A stretch of DNA of 64,000 nt from Octopus sinensis (Eukaryota): positions 36,840,464 through 36,904,463 of the forward strand of contig NC_043011.1 of the NCBI RefSeq assembly GCF_006345805.1, given 5' to 3'. Each line of letters begins with the position of its first letter. Position 1 is the stretch's first letter. Both the position numbers and the translations under genes were made by a program. Below the pieces are notes generated by a model. The model worked only from the letters and a program-made list of their open reading frames with translations. It did no database searches and had not been told where the DNA came from. This document shows, piece by piece, positions 10,677 through 58,483 of the stretch.

Positions 10677-13197
10677 TGGTCGGCGAACGAACCACCAAAA
10701 AAAAGGAGTATCAGAATAACAAACTCGGCATCTGAACAACTTTGGACCCCCATAACAACTGAAGAGGTCACCCAGGCACTGCAAAGACTAAGCAACTGGA
10801 AGGCACCTGGGCATGACAAGATCCCCAACTTCTGGTTGAAATATCTAACAGGAATGCACAAAAAGCTGGCTGAAAACTTTAACAACGTACTAGCAGAGCC
10901 AGAGATAATGTCTGAATGGCTCACGAAGGGGAAAACCATCTTAATTCCCAAATCAAATGAAACAGAAAAACCAGAAACTACAGACCAATAACCTGCCTCC
11001 CTACTATGTTCAAGGCATTTACTGCAGTGATATCACAAAGGCTGAACAAGCACCTGGACGAAAACAAACTGTTCCCAGAAGAGCAGAAAGGATGCCACAA
11101 AGGCTCATATGGCTGTAAAGATCAACTAATGATTAATAAAGCCATAACTGAAGACAGCCACAGAAAGAAGAAAGGCCTCAGTATGGCCTGGATTGACTAC
11201 AAAAAGGCGTTTGATAGCATCCCCCACACATGGATCCTCGAAACACTAGCCATTAACAAAGTAGCACCAACAATCATAAAATTCATAGAGCACTCTATGA
11301 ATAAATGGCAAACAGTCCTACACCTCCAAACAAAAGAGGGACTCATGAAAACCAAAGACATCCCCATTAGAAGAGGAATATTCCAGGGAGACACGCTCTC
11401 TCCACTCCTTTTCTGCTTGGCACTGTCACCTCTATCTGATATGCTAAATAGAACTGGATGCGGATATAAATGTTACGGCAAAACGATCAGCCACTTTTTA
11501 TATATGGATGACCTAAAACTATAGGCTGCAAATAACAAACAGCTGGAAACACTATTAAAGACAGTTCATGGATTTACCAAAGAAATAGATATGAAATTTG
11601 GATTAGAAAAATGCGCCAAAGTAACCCTGAAAAGAGGAAAACTAGTTAAGAGTAACAACATCACACTAGATAAAACCAATGAAATAAAAGAATTAGACCA
11701 AAGCCAAACTTACAAATACTTAGGAATCCATGAACTAGATAAGACACAACACACACAAATGAAAGAGAAAATAAAAAAAAGAATATTATAGACGAGTTAG
11801 ATCAATACTAAACACAGAGCTCAATGCTAAAAACAAGATAATAGGTATCAACACTTTAGCTGTCCCAGTTATAAGTTACAGCTACAATATCCTTAACTGG
11901 ACACGAAATGAACTGACCAAAATAGATAGGAAAACGAGAAAAATAATGACAGGATCTAGGATGCATCACCCAAAATCTGACATAGAAAGACTATATATAC
12001 AACGTATAGAAGGTGGTAGAGGTCTTATACAGCTGGAAAACTACTATAAAATAACCACCATAGGACTGCAAAAATATCTACTTCAGAAGGAAGGAAAACT
12101 GATCCAGATAGCGGCAAAACACGAGCAAAACAAAAAATGTTCTCAGTATTTAAGGAAGCTGACAAATACAAACAAGAAATCATACCACCTAATAAACATG
12201 AAGAAGAAGAAGAAGAAGAAGATGAAGAAACAACAAAAGCTATAAAACAAATGAAATCCAAACTAAAAATAGAACAGCAACGAACCATGATAAAACGATG
12301 GCAAGAAAAGCCCCTTCATGGTAAATACTGGACTAAACTAAACGCAAAAGAAATAGACAAAGAAAAATCCCAGCAATGGTTGAGAAGCTCAGGACTCAAA
12401 GCAGAAACAGAGGGATTTTTAATTGCAGCACAAGACCAAAGCCTCCCCACCAGAAATTACCAAAAACATGTAATGAAAAAAATATTACAAGTAACTGCAG
12501 AATATGTGGAGATGGACAAGAAACAATAAATCATATTATCTCTAGCTGCCCAGTCTTGGCTAAGAAGGAATATATTCACAGATATGACAGAGTTGGAACC
12601 TACATACATTGGAAGCTATGCCAACATTATGGAATAACAACAGAAAAAAGATGGTATAGGCACACACCAGAAAAGGTCACAGAAAACGAGAAAGCAACCA
12701 TACTCTGGGATATGCCGATACACACAGATAGAGAAATTAAGGCCAACAGACCAGATATAGTTGTCAGAGATCATGAAGAAAAAAAATGCTTTCTAATTGA
12801 TGTATCAATACCGGCTGATGACAACGTGTCTCAAAAAGAAATGGAGAAACTCTCAAAATACAAAGACCTGGAAATAGAGGTAACTAGAATGTGGAATCTG
12901 AAAACAGAAACAATTCCTATCATAGTAGGTGCATTAGGCATGATAAAAAAATATTCAGACAAATACATAACAAAAACACCAGGACTTACAAACACATATA
13001 ACATACAGAAAATTGCACTACTAGGCCCAGCCCACATCCTACACAGAACACTTTCCATACAATAACCATCAGAGCATCACAACAAATCACAGCACATGCA
13101 CAAGGCACACAGAGCTGTGCTCGGTAGTGAAGTGAAAGCACACTATAAAAATAAAACTACTGAATAATAATAATAATAATAATAATGATAATAATAA
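10675..13197 (+). mobile_element. 5'-truncated Dong/R4-clade (RLE) non-LTR retrotransposon inserted in (AAT)n
   Basis: RT, CCHC and RLE coding region, a 3' UTR of about 100 bp (13066-13162) and an (AAT)n tail. The 5' junction is also in (AAT)n. Confidence 0.95.
10677..13065 (+). pseudogene. Reverse transcriptase / zinc knuckle / restriction-like endonuclease ORF, disrupted
   Basis: Motifs KAPGHDKIPNFWLK, WIDYKKAFDSIPH, RGIFQGDTLSPLLF, YMDDLKL, CRICGDGQETINHIISSC, NRPDIVV..LIDVSIP..EKLSKY. TAG at 11522-11524. Frameshifts near 10980, 11780, 12135 and 12480, mostly in A runs. Confidence 0.95.
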
Positions 13198-28867: not shown

Positions 28868-29643
28868 TAATAATTAATATACGATAAATTTTTTTCGGAA
28901 AAAAATTTTTTACCAATGGCCAGCATATCAAAAAATGCCTTTAAAGGTTAAATTTATACATAATTTACAAGATAAGGGCAGAAGAAAAATTCCAATGCCA
29001 AGTATGCCGAAATAAAAAATGTCGATAACCATTATAATTTATGCGTCTCGAAAACAAACCGATAGAAATCTCTAAAAATTCGTTATTACCATATTGGTCC
29101 AATTTCGGGGTTAATTCATAAGAAATGTTCCCCTCTTCAGCGGCAAATACGCGAGATATAAATGAAATACTTACTCATACCCATGGAAAAGCAAGCACTA
29201 TCTGCCCTTATCTTGTAAATTATGTATAAATTTTACCTTTAAAGGCATTTTTTGATATGCTGGCCATTGATAAAAAAATCTTTCCCGAAAAAAATTTTAT
29301 CCTATATTAATTATAAATAGATTAGTGTTCACTTCCGGATTCTATCACTCTGTGAAAGTTTCTAGTTCGAATCACACTTTCTCGAGGTGCGCCGAAGATT
29401 TTTCTATATTGGATATATTTGGGGTACTTAAGTCTGCTCAGGACTTAGTGTTTGCTTTTTCCATTGGTATGAGTAAGTATTTCATTTATATCTCGCGTAT
29501 TTGCCGCTGAAGAGGGGAAAATTTCTTATGAATTAACCCCGAAATTGGACCAATACGGTAATAACGAATTTTTTAGAGATTTCTATCGGTTTGTTTTCGA
29601 GACGCATAAATTATAATGGTTATCGACAATTTTTTGTTTCGGC
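28868..29643. mobile_element. Interleaved inverted duplication of a hammerhead-bearing unit
   Basis: 28868-28983 is inverted at 29201-29314, and 29006-29200 is inverted at 29446-29643. Confidence 0.85.
29496..29557 (+). ncRNA. Hammerhead-like motif (mirror copy at 29091-29151 on the minus strand)
   Basis: CTGAAGA-GGGG...CCCC-GAAA is intact. Stem III/cleavage region TTGGAC and proximal stem I are non-canonical, while distal CGTATT/AATACG pairs. Confidence 0.55.
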
Positions 29644-30004
29644 GTGAATTTGCAGATGGAATGTGCTTATGTAATTTGTGTTCAAACAAAGAATTGTAAT
29701 ATCTCTCTCACTCACCCTTCCTCTCTCTCTTTCTGTCTTCATGTACATATCTATGTTCATGTGCATGCAGGCCTGTGTCAATGTACGTATGTATTTGCCT
29801 TCTGCTCTGCACCAAAGAGAGGCCGAATCTCCAGCAAGCTGGTGCCAAATTGTCTGCCTCCAAATACTTGCGCTCGTTTGTCAAGTTGTATGGTTGATCA
29901 AACACACACACATCTCTGAATCACCCTCTTCCTCACACTGTCTCTCTCTCACCCTCTCTCTCTCTCTTTATATATATAGATATTCGTGGTCCTGCGTCAA
30001 TTAG

Positions 30005-32065: not shown

Positions 32066-32115
<50 letters not shown>

Positions 32116-32188
32116 TATATGCGTATGATACGTCTTATGTCTATTGCATATATTCATATACTGACACTTAAAATAAATGCATTATATA

Positions 32189-32236
<48 letters not shown>

Positions 32237-32352
32237 CTGGGTACAGAAATTCAGGGTGAGTACTTGATAATTGTAAGCATCTGTATATACCGTTTGGTGG
32301 TGTAGGTGGTGGAGTAAATTAATCAAAATAAAAACATGATGCCAAGGATTCA

Positions 32353-32430
32353 GCGGTACATATGTTTCGGGCCTTTATTAGACGGATTTATAACAATGCA
32401 TAATGTGTGTCTATGGCCTTCTTCAGCCGC
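32353..32430 (-). ncRNA. Minimal type-I hammerhead ribozyme with intact core
   Basis: GCGG-CTGAAGA-A-GGCC...GGCC-C-GAA-ACATATGT-A-CCGC (GUA cleavage triplet). Confidence 0.82.
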
Positions 32431-32620
32431 GCACAACTACTACCTTAAGGACATGTATTACATCAAAAATTCTACGTTGGGGATGCAAATCCTCTCATTC
32501 GCGAGATGGACGTTTCATTTTTATGCTGTTGCCGCATTATGTCGTACGCGAATGAGAGGATTTGCATCCCCAACGTAGAATTTTTGATGTAATACATGTC
32601 CTTGAGGTAGTTGTTGTGCG

Positions 32621-32695
32621 CGGCTGAAGAGGCCATATACACACATTATGCATTGTTATAAATCCGTCTAATAAAGGCCCGAAACATATGTACCG
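32621..32695 (+). ncRNA. Minimal type-I hammerhead ribozyme with intact core
   Basis: CGG-CTGAAGA-GGCC...GGCC-C-GAA-ACATATGT-A-CCG. Predicted cut after A32692. Confidence 0.8.
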
Positions 32696-32750
32696 GTGAA
32701 TCATTGGCATCATGTTTTTATTTTGATTAATATATATATATATATATATA

Positions 32751-32790
<40 letters not shown>

Positions 32791-32929
32791 GCATTTATAT
32801 TAAATGTGAGTATATAAATATATGCAATAGACATAAGGCGTATCATACGCATATATATATGTATACAGCTGTTTATATTTATAAGCTCTCAGCACATATT
32901 TAACATCGCTCTCTAAGTAGTCACTGTAG

Positions 32930-33185
32930 TTAAAGGACCTTTTGAGCGGGATGGGCTACTCGACCTGAAGAAAACTTTAAGTGGGCCCCACCTGCAAGAT
33001 CATGCGCTACTTATCTTGATATGAGATCACCATGTCCGCACATATGGTTGTGATGCATGTGCCTGGTGTACCCTTATCAGACGGGTAGTCATGATGGGAT
33101 TACTGGGTTCGTATATTTTACCCCAGTGTCACTTTGATGGCATGCACTGCTCACTCTCTCAGTTATAATAATAATAATAATAATA
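32930..33185 (+). mobile_element. 3' end of an unclassified (AAT)n-tailed retroelement
   Basis: GC-richer block ending in (AAT)n, with no coding remnant recognised. Confidence 0.5.
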
Positions 33186-33262
33186 ATGAATGCCCTCTTG
33201 CAGTACCAGGCAGTGGCTCTCGTGGCTTCTGATCTTAACTCATTGGAAGTGTTATCATGTAC
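33186..33262 (-). mobile_element. 3' tip of an (ATT)n-tailed retroelement
   Basis: Reverse complement of 43622-43695. Confidence 0.75.
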
Positions 33263-35374: not shown

Positions 35375-36354
35375 ATAGAAAATAGTAAAAAGTGAAAAAC
35401 TACAGAAGGCTTAAAGGTTAAAAGATATATATATTTGCGTCAATATGTCTGAAGAATATAAAAAAAATTTTTTTTTTCCTTACAATGACATAGTTTAGAA
35501 GAAAGGCCGGTTTCGCGTTTAGCTTTTCAAATTTCTTACGACATTATGTTGATGTTGAATAGAGTTAACGTTATGTTTATATTTAAAAGAGTTCTAAATA
35601 AGGAGAGGTAATGAGTGATTTCTTCCGGTGTAAGGGAGATAATCGCTTAATTTTTTTTTCCTTTCCCTTGGTGTGAATTTCTCTGTATCAGTATGTTGGC
35701 ATGGTTAAGTCTGGGCTTGTACTTTTCAATGAAGAATGTTTCCTTGTTTAGTCTAATTTGTGTTGATGATCCGATAGCACATTGGTAAAATGGAAAGATT
35801 AAAAATTGTGGTAGTAGTTGCTTTGCGCATTTCTCAATGTGCTCACTAAAAAGTATCATTCTGTATTCTGGGAATGCAATCTGTTGTCGATGCAGTGTGC
35901 ATCTACGTCTGAGTGATAGTCCGTGGATCACGTAGTCTTGGTGGCAGCCCGAGCATTTTATGACATAATTATGTTTTCAGAGGCACAAGTAAAGTTAGAT
36001 TTGATCTTGAATTCTGTCCCTCTTTAAAGAGGAATTCTGATCCTTCTAGCAGGTTTGGAATGTTGCACAGTTCGATCTACCACATTTTTTTACTTTTGAA
36101 TCCGTAATTTCAGAAAACAATTTTGCCTTTGTGAGAATCTTTTTAAGTGATTTAGGTTGTTTGTAGCTTTTAATGATTTGGTGTATGTTTAGAATTTCCT
36201 TTAATTTGGGGTCCTTATGAAGTATTGGTAAATACTGGGTGATGATGGTGAAGGCTTCTTTGTTTCTGGGGTTGTATGTAGATATGTAAGGTAGTATTTT
36301 CGGGGAAGGTGTGTTGTTGTGTTGAACTTTTCTTAAAGTTTCTATGTTGATTTC

Positions 36355-36355
<1 letters not shown>
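35375..36355 (-). mobile_element. Penelope-like element 3' part (Cys-rich linker, GIY-YIG endonuclease, pLTR), disrupted
   Basis: LPYISTYNPRN..KSYKQPKSLKKILTKAK..KCGRSNCAT, then CSGCHQDY..LRRRCTLHRQQI..SEHIEKC..IFPFYQC..RLNKETFFIEKYKPRLN. Flanked by (AT)n. Confidence 0.88.
35499..35537 (-). ncRNA. Degenerate hammerhead downstream of the PLE ORF
   Basis: AAGAAA-T-TTGAAAA-GC(TAAAC)GC-GAA-ACCGGC-C-TTTCTT. Confidence 0.5.
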
Positions 36356-36447
<92 letters not shown>

Positions 36448-36883
36448 ATATCTACATGTATGTCTATAGATATGTATATATATGCCTGCGTTTATATACA
36501 CGTATGTATATGTATATATATGTATATAACTATATCTATATTTATCTATCTATATATGTGTGTGTGTGTGTGTCCGTGTGTGTTTGTGTAGTAATCACAT
36601 TATTGTTAACAACTGAATTATACCTTTGCGCATACAATAATTATGATACAATTTCAAAATCATCAAATAGTTTACTGAACATATTCCGGATATTGGCACC
36701 CTTTTTCAAATCCCACGTGCCTGAAGACGGTAAAGTGACACCACTTTAGTTTTACTTCTAGCTAGATTCACTCGTCTATATAAATGTGGATATGCTGATT
36801 AACTTTTATATGTTCCGATGACGCTTGGTCGGAAATATAAGGGGTAAGTTTTCCTAGCATTTCTAGATTTATTTATCGGAATA

Positions 36884-37554: not shown

Positions 37555-37713
37555 CTTTATTTAAAACAGCAAAAAATTCAACAAAACCTGTTACTCTGAG
37601 TTTCTCGTTGCCGTTCATCGGACAGTTTTTGCTAGCCAAAACTGTCCGATGAACGACAATCGGGAAACTTAGAGTAACAGGTTCTGTTGAATTTTCTGCT
37701 GCTTTAAATAAAG
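37555..37713. repeat. 75-bp inverted repeat with an 8-nt loop; each arm carries a hammerhead motif (37588-37625 minus, 37642-37680 plus)
   Basis: CTGT-CCGATGA-A-CG(GCAA)CG-A-GAA-ACTCAGAGT-A-ACAG. Confidence 0.85.
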
Positions 37714-40141: not shown

Positions 40142-40960
40142 TAAGACGGTGAACTGGGAGAATCGTTAGCACACCAGGAAAATTAAGTACCACTGGCATA
40201 CTGGGGTCGATATAATCGACTGGCTTCCTCCTCAAAATTTTCGGGCCTTGTGCATTGAGTAGAAAAGAATAATACCTTGTCTTAAGGCCGCGAGGTGGCA
40301 GACACGTTAGCACGACGGTTGAAATGTAAAGCGGTATTTCGTCTGCCGCTACGTTCTGAGTTCAGATTCCGTCGAGGTCGACTTTGCCTTTCATCCTTTC
40401 GGGGTCGATAAATCAAGTACCAGTTGCATACTGGGGTCGATATAATCGACTGGCTTCCTCCTCAAATTTTCGGGCCTTGTGCATTGAGTAGAAAAGAATA
40501 ATACCTTGTCTTAAGGCCGCGAGGTGGCAGACACGTTAGCACGACGGTTGAAATGTAAAGCGGTATTTCGTCTGCCGCTACGTTCTGAGTTCAGATTCCG
40601 TCGAGGTCGACTTTGCCTTTCATCCTTTCGGGGTCGATAAATCAAGTACCAGTTGCATACTGGGGTCGATATAATCGACTGGCTTCCTCCTCAAAATTTC
40701 GGGCCTTGTGCATTGAGTAGAAAAGAATAATACCTTGTCTTAAGGCCGCGAGGTGGCAGACACGTTAGCACGACGGTTGAAATGTAAAGCGGTATTTCGT
40801 CTGCCGCTATGTTCTGTGTTCAAATTCCGCCGAGGTCGACTTTGTCTTTCATCCTTTCGGCATCGATAAATTAAGCACCATTTGAGTAATAGGGTCGATC
40901 TAATCGACTTATCCCCTCCCCCAAAATTTCAGGCCTTGTGCCTATAGCACAAAGGATATT
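40142..40960 (+). mobile_element. Tandem array of SINE B, 229-bp period
   Basis: TTAAGGCCGCGAGG at 40282, 40511 and 40740. Confidence 0.93.
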
Positions 40961-42739: not shown

Positions 42740-43435
42740 ACATAGAAAGAACAAATGGCCAACACTCCATGGCCAACACCCTGCAAGAATTGACAGAGAA
42801 GAAGTGAGCCGAAGTAAAAGCTTGAAGTGAAGAAGTGAGCCGAAGTAAAAGCAAAGAATAGCTCAAAAGCTCTTGACTAAAAGGTGAAACGGAAGGACTG
42901 ATTCTCGCTGCTCAAGACCAGTGCCTCTCTACGAACAACTATAAAATCAAAATGATGAAAACAGACCCTAACAACACGTGTAGAATCTGCAACCACCAAA
43001 ATGAGACAGTTAACCACATCATCTATGGCTATCCAGTCCTTGCTAAATTTCAGTATATATACAGACATGACCGAGTAAGCAGTTACATTCACTGGACAAT
43101 GTATCAACAGTACAACAAAAAAATCTGACAATAAATGGTACAAATATGTGCCAAACAATGTACAGGACAACGATACAGAAGTGAAAGGTAATCGCCCAGA
43201 CATAGTAATCAAGAATGGGGGGAAAAAACCCACCTTCTTCGTGTTAGACATTGCAGTCCCTTCTCACCAAAATATTGTCCAAAAAGAAGTGGAGAAATTG
43301 TCAAAGTAGGACATCGAGTTTGAAGTATTCAAGAGGTGGGGCATGCAGGTGAAAACAATACCAATAATTGGAGCACTGAGCATGATTAAAAAGTCATGAG
43401 CAAAAACGTAGAAGCTGTACCTGGATCCAAACCTC
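42740..43435 (+). pseudogene. Old Dong/R4-clade fragment
   Basis: LHGQH..KGETEGLILAAQDQCLSTNNY..CRICNHQNETVNHIIYGYPVLAK..RHDRV..IHW, NRPDIVI, VLDIAVP. Confidence 0.88.
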
Positions 43436-43439
43436 CAAA

Positions 43440-43894
<455 letters not shown>

Positions 43895-48754: not shown

Positions 48755-49347
48755 GTTATCCTTTCTATTTAAGGCACATCGACCACAGTACTCAACTGGT
48801 ACTTATTGTATCGACCATGAAGTGACGAAAGACAAGGGCGACTACAGCAGAATTTGAATCCAGAAGGGGAAGAGGCACGAAATGCCGCTAAGCATTTTTC
48901 GCGGCGTGTTTAACGATTCTGCCACCTCACCGCCTTAATCATAATAATAATATGGTTGCAAATGTTGCAGAATGCCACTAATTTGTGGGGTGGACCACAA
49001 TGATAAACCGGTACTTAATTTGTCGACCCGAAATGATAAAATGCAAAGGGGATCTCGGCGGAATTTGAACCTGAATTTAAAGACGGTCAAAATGTTGCTA
49101 ACGATTCTGCCAGCTCTGTATAAAATATATTCTTTTCTACTCTAGGCACAAGACCCGAAATGCTTGAGGAGGGGACCAGTCGATTGCATCGACCCCAGTA
49201 TGCAACTGGTACTTAATTTATCGATTCCGAAAAGATGAAAGGCGAAGTCGACCTCGGCGGAATTTGAACTCAGAACAACTTAAAGACAGAAGAAATACCA
49301 CTAAACATTTCGCTCGGCGTGCTAGCGTTTCTGCCAGCTCACCACCT
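48755..49347 (-). mobile_element. Three adjacent SINE B copies or fragments
   Basis: Repeated GGTACTTAATTT.TCGA..GAATTTGAA..TTCTGCCAGCTC. Confidence 0.85.
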
Positions 49348-49368
49348 CATGGTAGTAATAATATTAAT

Positions 49369-49728
49369 AAAGGCGGCGAGCTGGCAGAAACGTCAGCACG
49401 CCGGGCGAATTGCGTAGCCGTATTTCGTCTGCCGTTACGTTCTGAGTTCAAATTCCGCCGAGGTCGACTTTGCCTTTTATCCTTTCGAGGTCGATATATT
49501 ACACACTGGGGTCGATGTAATCGACTTAATCCGTTTGTCTGTCCGTGTTTGTCCCCTCTGTGTTTAGCCCCTTATGTGTAGTAAAGAAATGGGTATTTCG
49601 TCTGTCATTACGTTCTGAGTTCAAATTCCGTCAAGGTCGACTTTGTCTTTCATCGTTTCGGGCTCGATAAATTAAGTACCAGAATTTCCAAAAATTTCGG
49701 GCCTTGTGCCTAGAGTAGAAAAGGATAA
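49369..49728 (+). mobile_element. SINE B composite
   Basis: AAGGCGGCGAGCTGGCAGAAACG head and duplicated core. Confidence 0.9.
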
Positions 49729-50116
49729 TATCAATAATCTTTTCTATTGTAGGCATACACCTGAAATTTGTCGGGATGAGACGAGTCGATTGTTAATATT
49801 TTATTAGTTGTAATGTGAAGGATTAATTGTGGAAACGATTGCCTTAGTTGTGATGTCTATGGGCGATGTGGTTGTTAATATTTGATTGATTGCGATGTGC
49901 GTTTTTGTTTGTGTTTTCGGGCAAATTCTTTTATTCCTTCCGTTGTTTCTAGTTGTTATGGTTGCAGTTAAGCAATCCCTAATTTTGGTGTCTTTCGAAA
50001 TTCTGATGGCTATTATCCTGATTCTTATCAATGGTGTCATTGGTTGTGGTTGTTACTATTGTGATTAAGATTTTATTGTCTGTGATGGTTTTAGCTGTTA
50101 TAGTTGTGACTATGGT

Positions 50117-50413
50117 CAGTGGTGGACCGGATCTAAAAATATTGGTTGCCAGGAGACTAAGGGCTCCACTCGCAACTACGAAGGGGGAGCACCTGCAACT
50201 ACAATGCTGTCATTTTCTTTTGTTTTTTCTTTTTTGTTAAATGTATTTTTTTCAACTGTCTACAAACACATCCAAGCTGAAATAATTAATGAATTCTTCT
50301 AGGAGTGAATAAAAAATTTCTCAAACTTGAGGGCCCTTAGATACTAAAATGTGCCCCGACGCAGGTGTCCACTTTTCATCGAGCAAGATGGCAACCTGGC
50401 CAGTCCGCCACTG
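50117..50413. mobile_element. hAT-like MITE
   Basis: TIRs CAGTGGTGGACCGG / CCAGTCCGCCACTG and a perfect 8-bp TSD ACTATGGT (50109-50116, 50414-50421). Confidence 0.88.
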
Positions 50414-51066
50414 ACTATGGTTATGATTTAACAAGCTGTGATGTAGAGTTGTAGCTCTGTCAATTTATTGGTTTTAATATTTAGAGACGTGGTTTCTGGT
50501 TTAGAAATTATTGGTTGAGATGGTTGGTTATAGTATGCTACGGTTCTAATTGTTGTCGTTATTGTTGAGATATCACTGCTTCTGATATCTGTTCAATTAT
50601 CACAATATTTCATTGGTTGTGATATTCATTAGTGTTTTGTGATGTGAATTTTGGTTTGTGTTGTGGTTGTAAAGTTTGTTAGTATTGTTCCTATAAGATG
50701 ATTGTGGATGTTAGGCTTGTAGGTAAGATTTTATTCTTTGTGACAATCGACGTGTTGCAGTGCATATATAGTTAAAATATATAATTTATAATTTACAGCC
50801 TTCTTCACTGGGTGGCGAACCGGCAGAAGCGTTAGCGCAACGGCCAAAATGATTAGCGGCATTTAAAGTTCAAATTCTGCCGAAGTCGACTTTGTCCTTG
50901 ATCCTTTTGGACCGATAAAATAAGTATCAGTTGGTGGAAGGGTCAATTTCATCGACTTAGACCTTCCTAGAAATTGCTGGCCATGTCTGAAGATATGAAA
51001 TCTATATATAACCTTCCTGGAATTCGAACAAGGCATGTTTAGGTGAGAGAGTGAAACTTAAATATT

Positions 51067-51464
51067 CTTTTCTAGTCTAGACACAAGGCCCGACATTTTT
51101 CGGAAAGGGGTCAGTCGATTAGATCGACACCAGTACGCAGCTTGTACTTAATTTATCCACCCCGAAAGGATGAAAGGCAAAGACGACCTCGGTGGAATTT
51201 GAACTCAGAACGTAACGGCAGACGAAATACCTATTTCTTTATTGCCCACAAGGGGCTAAACATAGCGGGGACAAACAAGGACAGGCAAAGGGATTAAGTC
51301 GATTACATCGACCCAGTGCGTTACTGGTACTTGATTTATCGACCCCGAAAGGATGGAAAGCAAAGTCGACCTCGGCGGAATTTGAATTTAGAACGTAACG
51401 GTATGACGAAATACTGCTAAGCATTTCACCAAGCGTGCTAACGTTTCTGCCAGCTCGCCGTCTT
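51067..51464 (-). mobile_element. SINE B composite with 17-bp TSD
   Basis: AGTGAAACTTAAATATT at 51050-51066 and 51465-51481. Confidence 0.92.
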
Positions 51465-52836
51465 AGTGAAACTTAAATATTACAGTATTTGTTAATGGTG
51501 ATCAGAATTATATTTGGCTGTACTCCTAAATACATGATGCTTACGGATTTTTATTTTTCTCCCCAGACATCCATCCTTGACGTCAGGATTTTGATAAGTT
51601 GAAAAACAGAAATTTTAATTTTCGAAACTAAACGTCTTAGAGAAAATTCCTTTATCTTTTAGCGAGCTTCCAAAAACTTCGGTGTTCAGCTCTCAGCAGA
51701 AAAGTATCTTCTCACTACCAAAAGCTGTGTGTCATTAGAAAGGTGTTTAACAAGATAATTTTAATCCTTCATCTTACTCTCTCGGAGCTTATTCTTCCTG
51801 CACCGCAAGCTATGTCCTACATTTATCGATAACTCTTTCACTTCTCATATTTCGGCAATTTCATCATTCCTTAATAAACATGTATAACCTGCATATAAGA
51901 CATGATACATTACGTTTACAAAAAAACTATTGCCTTATGTTAATAAACTTGTTATTTAACATGTGTTTTGTAGTTGTTGTTTGGATATTATTGTCTCTGA
52001 TGGATGTTGTGAATGTTTGTTGCTATTGTAGGAGGGGTGGTTGTAGTCCTGGTAGTGGTTGCATTAGCTGTAATGGTTGTGGGTGTTGTGATTTCGTTCA
52101 AGATTATTGTTGTGTGATGGTTGTAGCTGTGTTTGTAGTTAAACCGTTACAAATTATAAACCTGTGAGTGCTGTGGGTACCAAGACTGCGGATACATGTG
52201 TATGTGTGTGCGAGTGTGTCTGTGCGTTCGTGCTTGTATATGCGTTGTGTGTGTGTTGTGTGTGTATTTGGGTTTGTTCAGCCCCCGAGTCAAAATCTGT
52301 CGTTCAACTCTTCATTGGCGTACATGGAGAAAACATTCTTTTTTTGTTTTTACAAAATATGACCATAAACAAACGTGGATGAATATTTGCAAAAGTACCC
52401 AACAATGAAAGCAAATATTCTCTGTGTAACTCTCAACACCACCTCCAAGAACAACAGCAACAACCATATCACTACCACCACTACCATCATACATCTCTCA
52501 TTTCTATAACTAACCTCCTGTATCTGATGCTTCGCCTTCATTCTTTACTCTCTTCTTTTCCTGTAACCAATACTCTGCCACCGTTCTCCACCGCACTTCC
52601 CACCTGTTTTTTTCTTTTTTTCCGTTGTTTTTTTTTTCCTGTACATCAACATTCAATACGTGCAAAACTCCATGGTGAATGCTGACATAATTTTATCGAC
52701 ATTTTCAAATAATATAAAGATTTTATTTTTAAAAATGGAAAGCAAACCGCAACAGCAATAACTTATGTAACGGACAATAACAACAGCACATTAATGACAA
52801 CACTGATAAATGTTCGCATAACAAAATAAATACATA

Positions 52837-57273: not shown

Positions 57274-58483
57274 TTGGGTTGGCAACTAAGCTCCCGCCGT
57301 TCTTTAAAATAAATTTTTTTTAAAAGGTTTAATAAAAAATAACAACTAATTAATCAATAATGTATTCACCCTTGTTGTTTACAACTTCTTCTCAACGTTC
57401 AACAAGATTTTCAATACCTCGTTGTTAGAAATCACTCGATTTCGACTCTAAAAATTGATCCAACCAAGCTCTCAATTCTGCATCAGTATTGAACGAAGCT
57501 CCGCGCATAACATTTGAAAGAGATCGTAAGATGTGGAAATCCGTTGGTGCCAAATCAGAAGAGTTCGACGGGAGTAGCAGCACTTCCTAGCCATACGTTT
57601 GAATGGGTTCCTTGGTCATATTGGCGATATGAGGGCGGGCTTTGTTGTGCAGCAGAAGAACTCCATGCTGCCGATTAGGTCTTTTCTCTTAAATAGCCGT
57701 GTTGAGTCGTTCCATCTGTTGAACATAGAGCTCCGCGTTGACCATTTGGTTCCGTTCAAGCAATTCGTAATGGATAATCCATTCCCAGACCCACCATATG
57801 CACAACATCGTTTTATGCAGATGAAGATCTTGTTTCACGCGTAGTGTCTCTTCTTTACCGGGGCTAAGCCATTCATTACGCTGCTTTATATTGACGTACA
57901 GGCACCATTTTCCATCGCCAGTAACCATTCGGTAAATAAATCTTTGCTTGTGTCCATGAGTTGAGCGGGGACGAGCAAGCAAACCAGCGGAGATTGTGGC
58001 TGGTTGATTTTTGTTGTTGTCACTTAAAGCATGCGGAACCGATGCTCCATACTTCTGAAACTTTCCCATCGAGTGAAGATGCATCTCTATAGCAGTGTGC
58101 AAGCATTCCATTTTCTCTGCCATTGCATTTTGGTGCAAAAGTTGCTTTAATCGGTCTTCATCGAATTCGACTGGACGGCCAGAATTAGGTGCATCTTTGA
58201 GGTCGAAATTTCCATTTTTGAACTAGGCATACCAATTACGAGCGGTTCTTTTAGCTATGGCACCCTCTCTCTACACAGTAAAAATGTCGCGAGCAGCTTT
58301 TGTGGCCTTAGAACTTTGATTAAAAGCAAAAAGAAGGTGTCGAAAACGCTCGTTTTTCTTAATTTGATATTCCATTTTAATGATCTGAAAATAAACAAAC
58401 ATGAATAAAAATTAACTAGAAGGAAATAAAACAAAATAGATCCCCCCCCAAAAAAAAAACGCGGCAACTTAGTTGCCACCTAA
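57274..58483 (-). mobile_element. Near full-length mariner element (1.21 kb)
   Basis: TIRs TTGGGTTGGCAACTAAG / CTTAGTTGCCACCTAA with TA flanks. Confidence 0.95.
57350..58375 (-). pseudogene. Mariner transposase, frameshifted
   Basis: MEYQIKKNERFRHL, MVTGDGKWCLY, WLSPGK, KTMLCIWW, DLAPTDFHILRSLSN, NNKGEYIID*. Confidence 0.93.

Follow-up and report, generated by a model that had tools for sequence, protein, structure and literature searches.

Organization of the locus

The window—that is, the whole stretch of 64,000 nucleotides analyzed here—is microsatellite-rich animal DNA with a G+C content of approximately 35 in 100, and it contains, as assembled, an inverted structure in which two copies of one sequence face each other between (TA)n tracts. 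Reading from the sequence only had placed a fold-back of 740 bp at 32117..32856; the structure is indeed present, but its whole extent is slightly wider, namely 760 bp. Its parts are as follows.

32106..32182, no strand: left outer arm, an inverted copy of 32789-32865; non-element DNA with (TA)n on either side
32066-32109 and 32181-32235: (TA)n flanking the left outer arm
32183..32235, no strand: left (TA)n microsatellite, 53 bp, abutting the left copy at its 3′ end, and the likely target
32236..32317, minus strand: 82-bp 3′ extension (tail) of the element, in the left copy only, starting AC-rich on the sense strand
32318..32503, minus strand: left copy, an inverted, 5′-truncated pLTR-like end; family contigs cover every bin
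32503..32504, no strand: inversion junction of the two 5′-truncated copies, where 1-2 nt fit either side
32504..32546, plus strand: 43-nt "loop," continuing the less truncated right copy in the 5′ direction
32547..32731, plus strand: right copy, a 5′-truncated pLTR-like end without the tail
32732..32788, no strand: right (TA)n microsatellite, 57 bp, joining the 3′ end of the right copy
32789..32865, no strand: right outer arm, continuing outward into unique flank

Most of the dimensions described earlier were reproduced by alignment: the inner arms of approximately 185 bp with few differences (32318-32503 versus 32547-32731; 186 columns, with five substitutions and one one-base gap), the 43-nt loop (32504-32546), and the outer arms past (AT)n (32106-32182 versus 32789-32865; 77 columns, with five substitutions). 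The picture of symmetric arms, however, was abandoned, as it overlooks an 82-bp segment (32236-32317) lying on the left only, between the left inner arm and the (TA)n tract. The outer arms have no other long match within the 64-kb window, and their inverted match extends further outward only between simple repeats. The element ends in (TA)n on both sides, and no short direct target-site duplication was found there; an AT-rich match of 8 nt at the outer arms belongs to the inverted arms themselves. The locus also contains no tandem array besides microsatellites.

Two further fold-backs lie within 6 kb of the main one. The second, of an unrelated family, occupies 28870-29662 and has arms at 28989-29200 and 29446-29662 (203 of 212 aligned letters identical), with outward-facing hammerhead motifs at 29140 (minus strand) and 29507 (plus strand) that have a 6-bp stem I and a near-palindromic stem III; it also contains a second inverted pair (28870-28982 and 29201-29314), and resembles a partial tandem with an inverted copy next to it. 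The third, at 37555-37713, has 78-bp arms around a 2-nt centre and an outward-facing hammerhead-like motif with the core CCGAUGA, and is unrelated in sequence.

Hammerhead motifs

Each copy carries one type I hammerhead motif, with the two facing outward, one per strand.

32353..32430, minus strand: left type I hammerhead motif, agreeing with the family majority at the core and stems; CUGAAGA at 32426-32420, stem I of 4 bp, extra A, stem II GGCC/GGCC with a 41-nt loop, GAA at 32368-32366, palindromic stem III at 32365-32358, predicted cut after 32357
32620..32696, plus strand: right type I hammerhead motif; CUGAAGA at 32624-32630, GAA at 32681-32683, palindrome at 32684-32691, predicted cut after 32692

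As had been noted, CUGAAGA, GAA, the palindrome ACAUAUGU and GUA are retained in both, and the two differ at the base of stem II (AGGCC versus GGCC opposite GGCCC). The description of the motifs as core-intact holds for the unpaired core only; stem I is short (4 bp in the left motif, 3 bp in the right). In both copies, the conserved unpaired core is accompanied by A15.1-U16.1, a UH cut site, and a palindromic helix III, whose self-duplex was computed at −10.0 and −11.8 kcal/mol. An unpaired nucleotide between 9 and 10.1 is present in the left copy and in the family majority, and is lost in the right copy. A G10.1-C11.1 pair is possible with a bulged C, the energy model favoring unpaired A and C by 3.4 kcal/mol. 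The right motif bears three private lesions: loss of the extra A, a broken fourth pair of stem I at 32696, and a mismatch at 32638, within a 5-bp stretch that extends helix II.

A descriptor scan with a palindromic stem III returned two such motifs in the window and none in 30 of 30 dinucleotide shuffles. There were no Rfam matches in the window at the gathering score; with E up to 10, only microsatellite-driven microRNA matches appeared among the 150 of 313 rows listed for the whole window, and the five matches in 32240-32730 included no ribozyme. The probability of the hammerhead fold, computed from secondary structure only and with no tertiary contacts, was 4e-2 or 2e-4 by register for the left copy alone, and 2e-6 or 7e-9 for the right copy alone.

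A high-copy repeat family in public sequencing runs

Between 0.33 and 0.46 of the sampled words were found in 20 of the 24 sequencing runs listed (10 studies, four organism labels). Contigs of four runs from four studies (X2, X3, X10, and X6) were aligned to 32236-32576, a span comprising the left-only segment, the left arm, the loop, and 30 bp of the right arm. On these 341 bp, 444, 777, 560, and 51 contigs align, with 29 of 29 bins covered in each run, where contig depth is not copy number and contigs lose rare variants. The RNA label of X6 is a guess, its contigs being family-level and none of the runs listed being recorded as RNA, a listing that carries no information about expression. The family contigs show many variant letters and several different loose ends. 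The arms, the loop, and the left-only segment all belong to one high-copy, interspersed repeat family.

The depth of the bin 32500-32511 falls to 0.10-0.26 of that of the nearby arm in all four runs, and the bins at the border between loop and right arm (32546/32547) show no dip (0.76-1.45). Contigs spanning from 32502-32505 to 32570-32576 occur in all four runs, with no more than 30 letters on the arm side, where the aligned span ends (one letter fewer than required to count as bridging), and loose ends behind 32574 continue like the right arm. Among the loose ends listed, those before 32502/32503 consist of other upstream family sequence in all four runs. Taken together, the contig runs, the depth drop, and the upstream loose ends indicate that the loop extends the right copy in the 5′ direction, that both copies are 5′-truncated, and that the junction lies at 32503/32504. 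An opposite-strand joint at 32473/32576 in X3 was considered as support for the fold-back and set aside, as it is merely the right arm passing the end of the aligned span.

The 82-bp left-only segment likewise belongs to the family in all four runs, with a depth 0.23-0.42 times that of the arm next to it. Among the loose ends listed, (TA)n-type ends occur before 32245 (X2 and X6), 32318 (X6), and 32328 (X10), and one X6 contig, flanked differently, meets (TA)n at 32318, the position equivalent to the 3′ terminus of the right copy. The two end positions and the lower depth mark the 82-bp segment as an optional 3′ tail, with start sites deduced from contig ends.

The family also bears on the history of the hammerheads. 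Both copies had been thought to descend from an ancestral GGGCC at stem II, a proposal not supported by the family majority, which has the left-copy form (CUGAAGA, A, GGCC) with the extra A present: at 32419-32420 and 32369-32373, no other letter reaches at least 5 in 100 and no indel occurs in any of the four runs. This is a present-day majority and not a proven ancestor. The six differences between the inner arms comprise four private to the right copy, one private to the left copy, and one family polymorphism. At 32413 and 32384, 80-85 and 62-91 in 100 of the depth, respectively, carry another letter; both arms share the minority letters, suggesting that they were likely derived from one template. 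By hand, the majority letters at these two places were found to change U.G and A.C into C-G and A-U in the 5-bp extension of helix II, which is thus fully paired in the family majority but flawed in each of the two copies here. This is a sign of selection on the fold in the parent family.

The same differences bear on whether the fold-back exists in the genome at all. An assembly artefact from a fold-back (chimeric) long read would be compatible with the findings that no contig bridges 32503/32504 among the 32 pieces listed (the set contains 1805 more) and that no run exceeds 0.46 of the sampled words. Such low word shares are, however, expected, since contigs collapse a high-copy repeat. Moreover, a fold-back read would give identical arms, whereas here 6 of 186 inner and 5 of 77 outer columns disagree, and an 82-bp block of true family sequence stands on one side only; the letters of the right arm at 32438 and 32446 also occur in the family. 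We thus consider such an artefact highly unlikely.

Searches of metagenome contigs yielded no matches to a 22-nt pattern, and 120 loci matching a 15-nt pattern, none of which has more than a 27-nt chance alignment to the element.

Probable origin from a Penelope-like element

The layout can be accounted for by the insertion geometry of Penelope-like elements (PLEs), which the sequence-only reading had not named. We consider it likely that the fold-back, consisting of two 5′-truncated 3′ ends of one high-copy family, head to head between (TA)n tracts, is a dead-end insertion product of an endonuclease-bearing (EN+) PLE. The features shared with PLEs are the head-to-head 5′-truncated copy, a tail at one end, a pLTR hammerhead near the 3′ end, and (TA)n ends. 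As general traits, PLEs are described as inserting at microsatellites, with a 5′-truncated inverted copy directly adjoining the 5′ end and, often, a tail of 30-40 bp on one side (PMC8557442). The head-to-head arrangement is reported as the most frequent form, with microhomology at the junctions; in Pen2a_Av, the inverted pLTR lacks 37 bp relative to the direct pLTR (PMC3846280). The formation of PLE inverted ends is still called open (PMC8557442).

In the proposed route, the GIY-YIG nuclease of the element would cut within (TA)n, and the two DNA 3′ ends would each prime reverse transcription on element RNA. One cDNA would start at the distal site, with the 82-nt tail, and the other at the proximal site, without it; both would stop early, at approximately 270 and 230 nt, and be joined via 1-2 nt of microhomology. 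The hammerheads would be passengers of the pseudo-LTR. In vitro, a PLE protein has been shown to cut and extend both strands at AT-rich sites, with reverse transcription starting at two sites bounding the tail; the hammerhead of that element was active only in the presence of protein, and insertion did not depend on the ribozyme (PMC11167929).

The element is probably a PLE. No reverse transcriptase or endonuclease frame tied to this family was found in the frames over the loop or in the 30-letter loose ends of the contigs. A frame ending at 32553-32555 faintly resembles the end of a GIY-YIG domain, but is too short to serve as evidence.

The surroundings agree with a PLE origin, given the two neighboring fold-backs with outward-facing hammerheads. 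In addition, two broken minus-strand frames at 35650-36549, with a microsatellite between them, resemble a PLE linker and GIY-YIG end. Neither gave a Pfam match; for the frame at 35650-35976, the nearest Atlas clusters score 0.91 and have GIY-YIG on 23-41 in 100 members, which provides a lead only.

Comparison with known systems

The closest relatives in layout are the inverted pLTR units of EN+ PLEs (Penelope/Poseidon, Neptune, and Nematis), with which the locus shares the head-to-head orientation (Fig. 2 of PMC8557442), as well as arms of approximately 200 bp, a one-end tail, a simple-repeat target, and a hammerhead near the 3′ end (PMC8557442 and PMC3846280). As in Pen2a_Av of Adineta vaga, the inverted copy is the more truncated, by 43 bp here and 37 bp there (PMC3846280). 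Unlike those units, the locus has no ORF between its arms and a tail of approximately 80 rather than 30-40 bp; where they have a short direct duplication of the target, it has 77 bp of flank duplicated in inverted orientation. The tail length and the inverted flanks are points against a plain PLE account.

The ribozymes likewise resemble metazoan PLE hammerheads of the D. virilis, rotifer, shrimp, and mosquito type: both have type I topology with a complete unpaired core, helix I is short, an additional unpaired nucleotide sits between 9 and 10.1, and helix III is a palindrome through which two copies are predicted to pair (PMC4209133). They differ in a 41-nt loop II, a G10.1-C11.1 pair available only with a bulged C, and the lack of an Rfam match. 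The same source describes a D. virilis variant with a helix II bulge, cutting that is weak and dependent on dimers, and opposite-strand hammerhead pairs 100-700 bp apart in Schistosoma mansoni (PMC4209133). With Poseidon PAc of Anolis carolinensis, the element shares two 3′ ends bounding a tail, an AT-rich target, and AC-rich tail sequence; the PAc start sites are 30-40 nt apart and were determined in vitro, whereas here they are deduced from contig ends, and no ORF start was found in stem II here (PMC11167929).

A non-LTR retrozyme was rejected as an identity for the element, since the locus has no head-to-tail tandem units apart from microsatellites. Retrozymes of this type are similarly non-coding, with a type I hammerhead and a proposed PLE origin, but are head-to-tail tandems giving circular RNA, in contrast to the single head-to-head pair with one sense ribozyme per strand found here (PMC7229834; bioRxiv 10.64898/2026.07.22.740005).

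Inverted duplication of the flank

Plain priming from two ends predicts unrelated flanks or a short direct duplication, and hence leaves the 77-bp inverted flanks unexplained. The outer arms are more diverged than the inner arms (5 of 77 versus 6 of 186 columns), but not significantly so (Fisher p 0.31). They represent either an older inverted duplication around the targeted (TA)n or a product of the same event, in which case they may have arisen through two primings from one side or through snap-back copying. We tentatively propose, while considering it rather unlikely, that the outer arms were made by the insertion itself, with both cDNAs primed from the same side of the (TA)n and an inverted flank duplication replacing the direct target-site duplication. 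A limited literature search returned no paper on inverted flank duplication at PLE insertions.

A single priming is an improbable alternative. According to this account, a cDNA primed from the right target end would snap back at 32547, copy itself, the (TA)n, and the 77-bp flank, and then rejoin the left (TA)n, with the right tail lost later. The outer arms would be explained directly, the loop is on the required strand, the (TA)n tracts are similar in length (53 and 57 bp), the inner and outer divergences do not differ significantly, and self-priming has been proposed for PLE inverted junctions (PMC3846280). Nevertheless, it needs a later 82-bp deletion ending precisely where another copy meets (TA)n (before 32318, in one X6 contig), and the loop alone forms only a weak hairpin (−1.4 and −2.1 kcal/mol, computed as DNA).

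That the duplication extends past the element into the flank, and that (TA)n is self-complementary, would also fit a fold-back made by host replication or repair at a break, which duplicated a stretch that happened to hold an element fragment, with the element's enzymes uninvolved. However, the two copies join within element sequence, only one of them has the tail, and hammerhead fold-backs occur three times within 64 kb, in different families, which points to elements and not to the place; we regard a host origin as very unlikely.

Predicted read-through RNA and masking of the ribozyme

For the hammerheads of the proposed PLE insertion product, the prediction in a tandem element would be dimeric cleavage, with two copies pairing via the palindromic stem III. 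At this locus, which has one sense copy per strand with the antisense copy before it, read-through RNA would instead be an uncut duplex, with editing or dicing as a side effect. The earlier suggestion that a read-through transcript would fold into a long duplex masking the ribozyme held up as a prediction, with computed energies of −497 and −477 kcal/mol for the two strands and a computed probability of 1e-81 to 1e-86 for the hammerhead fold within the read-through RNA. Because the antisense copy is transcribed before the sense copy in both directions, the predicted masking would hold during transcription as well.

Small RNAs and editing from inverted Penelope copies are by-products already in print: siRNAs match inverted regions of rearranged Penelope copies (PMC3681739), and Penelope is hyper-edited in a lizard, with palindromic repeats heavily edited in a frog (PMC5625713). 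At the present locus they would likewise be by-products of any read-through. X6, RNA by guess, and the DNA runs show the same kinds of change, with A>G at four places in all four runs, in contigs that are unsuited to testing editing.

The very stable duplex, the predicted masking, and the coverage of 29 of 29 bins by family contigs in X6 (RNA by guess) could also be read as signs of a self-propagating or exapted hairpin, that is, a MITE-like fold-back, or an RNA switch with an antisense-masked ribozyme. Arguing against such a unit, the junction is not family-wide (0.10-0.26 of the arm depth), the right ribozyme is decayed at three places, and no host exon was recognized by Pfam among 137 frames, a search that would miss short exons. 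These frames, comprising two over the loop and 135 from the set of 295 complex frames at least 45 aa long, gave only zf-RVT and one sub-threshold match, with no Pfam match in the two over the loop. A MITE or fold-back transposon was specifically discarded, as depth drops where the two copies meet, and other sequence follows there in the family. Overall, a functional hairpin appears extremely unlikely.

Other repeats in the window

Several further repeats were recorded in the window. A frameshifted non-LTR retroelement lies at 10700-13065 (plus strand; RVT_1, E 6e-23, and zf-RVT), with a further zf-RVT piece at 42877-43125, and a mariner-type transposase fragment lies at 57692-58222 (minus strand; Transposase_1, E 2e-16). 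A 229-bp unit at 40180-40909 occurs in 3.2 tandem copies with 96 in 100 matches; hammerhead scans found no motif in it, and it looks like a SINE. SINE-like pieces form an inverted cluster at 48800-51470, including a self-inverted stretch at 49178-49526 with 76 in 100 identity. A 95-bp repeat is common to 33167-33261 and 43623-43717 (86 in 100 identity), its first copy being just right of the main fold-back, after an (AAT)n run. The short repeats of the window resemble octopus SINEs.

Significance

As it stands, the fold-back is an ordinary and fairly clean case of a by-product already known from retroelements, and its main use is to flag a repeat family that is uncatalogued or at least unmatched. 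If the insertion did make the outer arms, the inverted flank duplication would record the way in which inverted ends of PLEs arise, and would give these elements a means of seeding long hairpins of host DNA; if recurrent at other copies, it would discriminate between priming from two ends and double priming from one end. The three fold-backs within 64 kb suggest that such elements generate perfect hairpins steadily; wherever these are transcribed, they could supply substrates for A-to-I editing.
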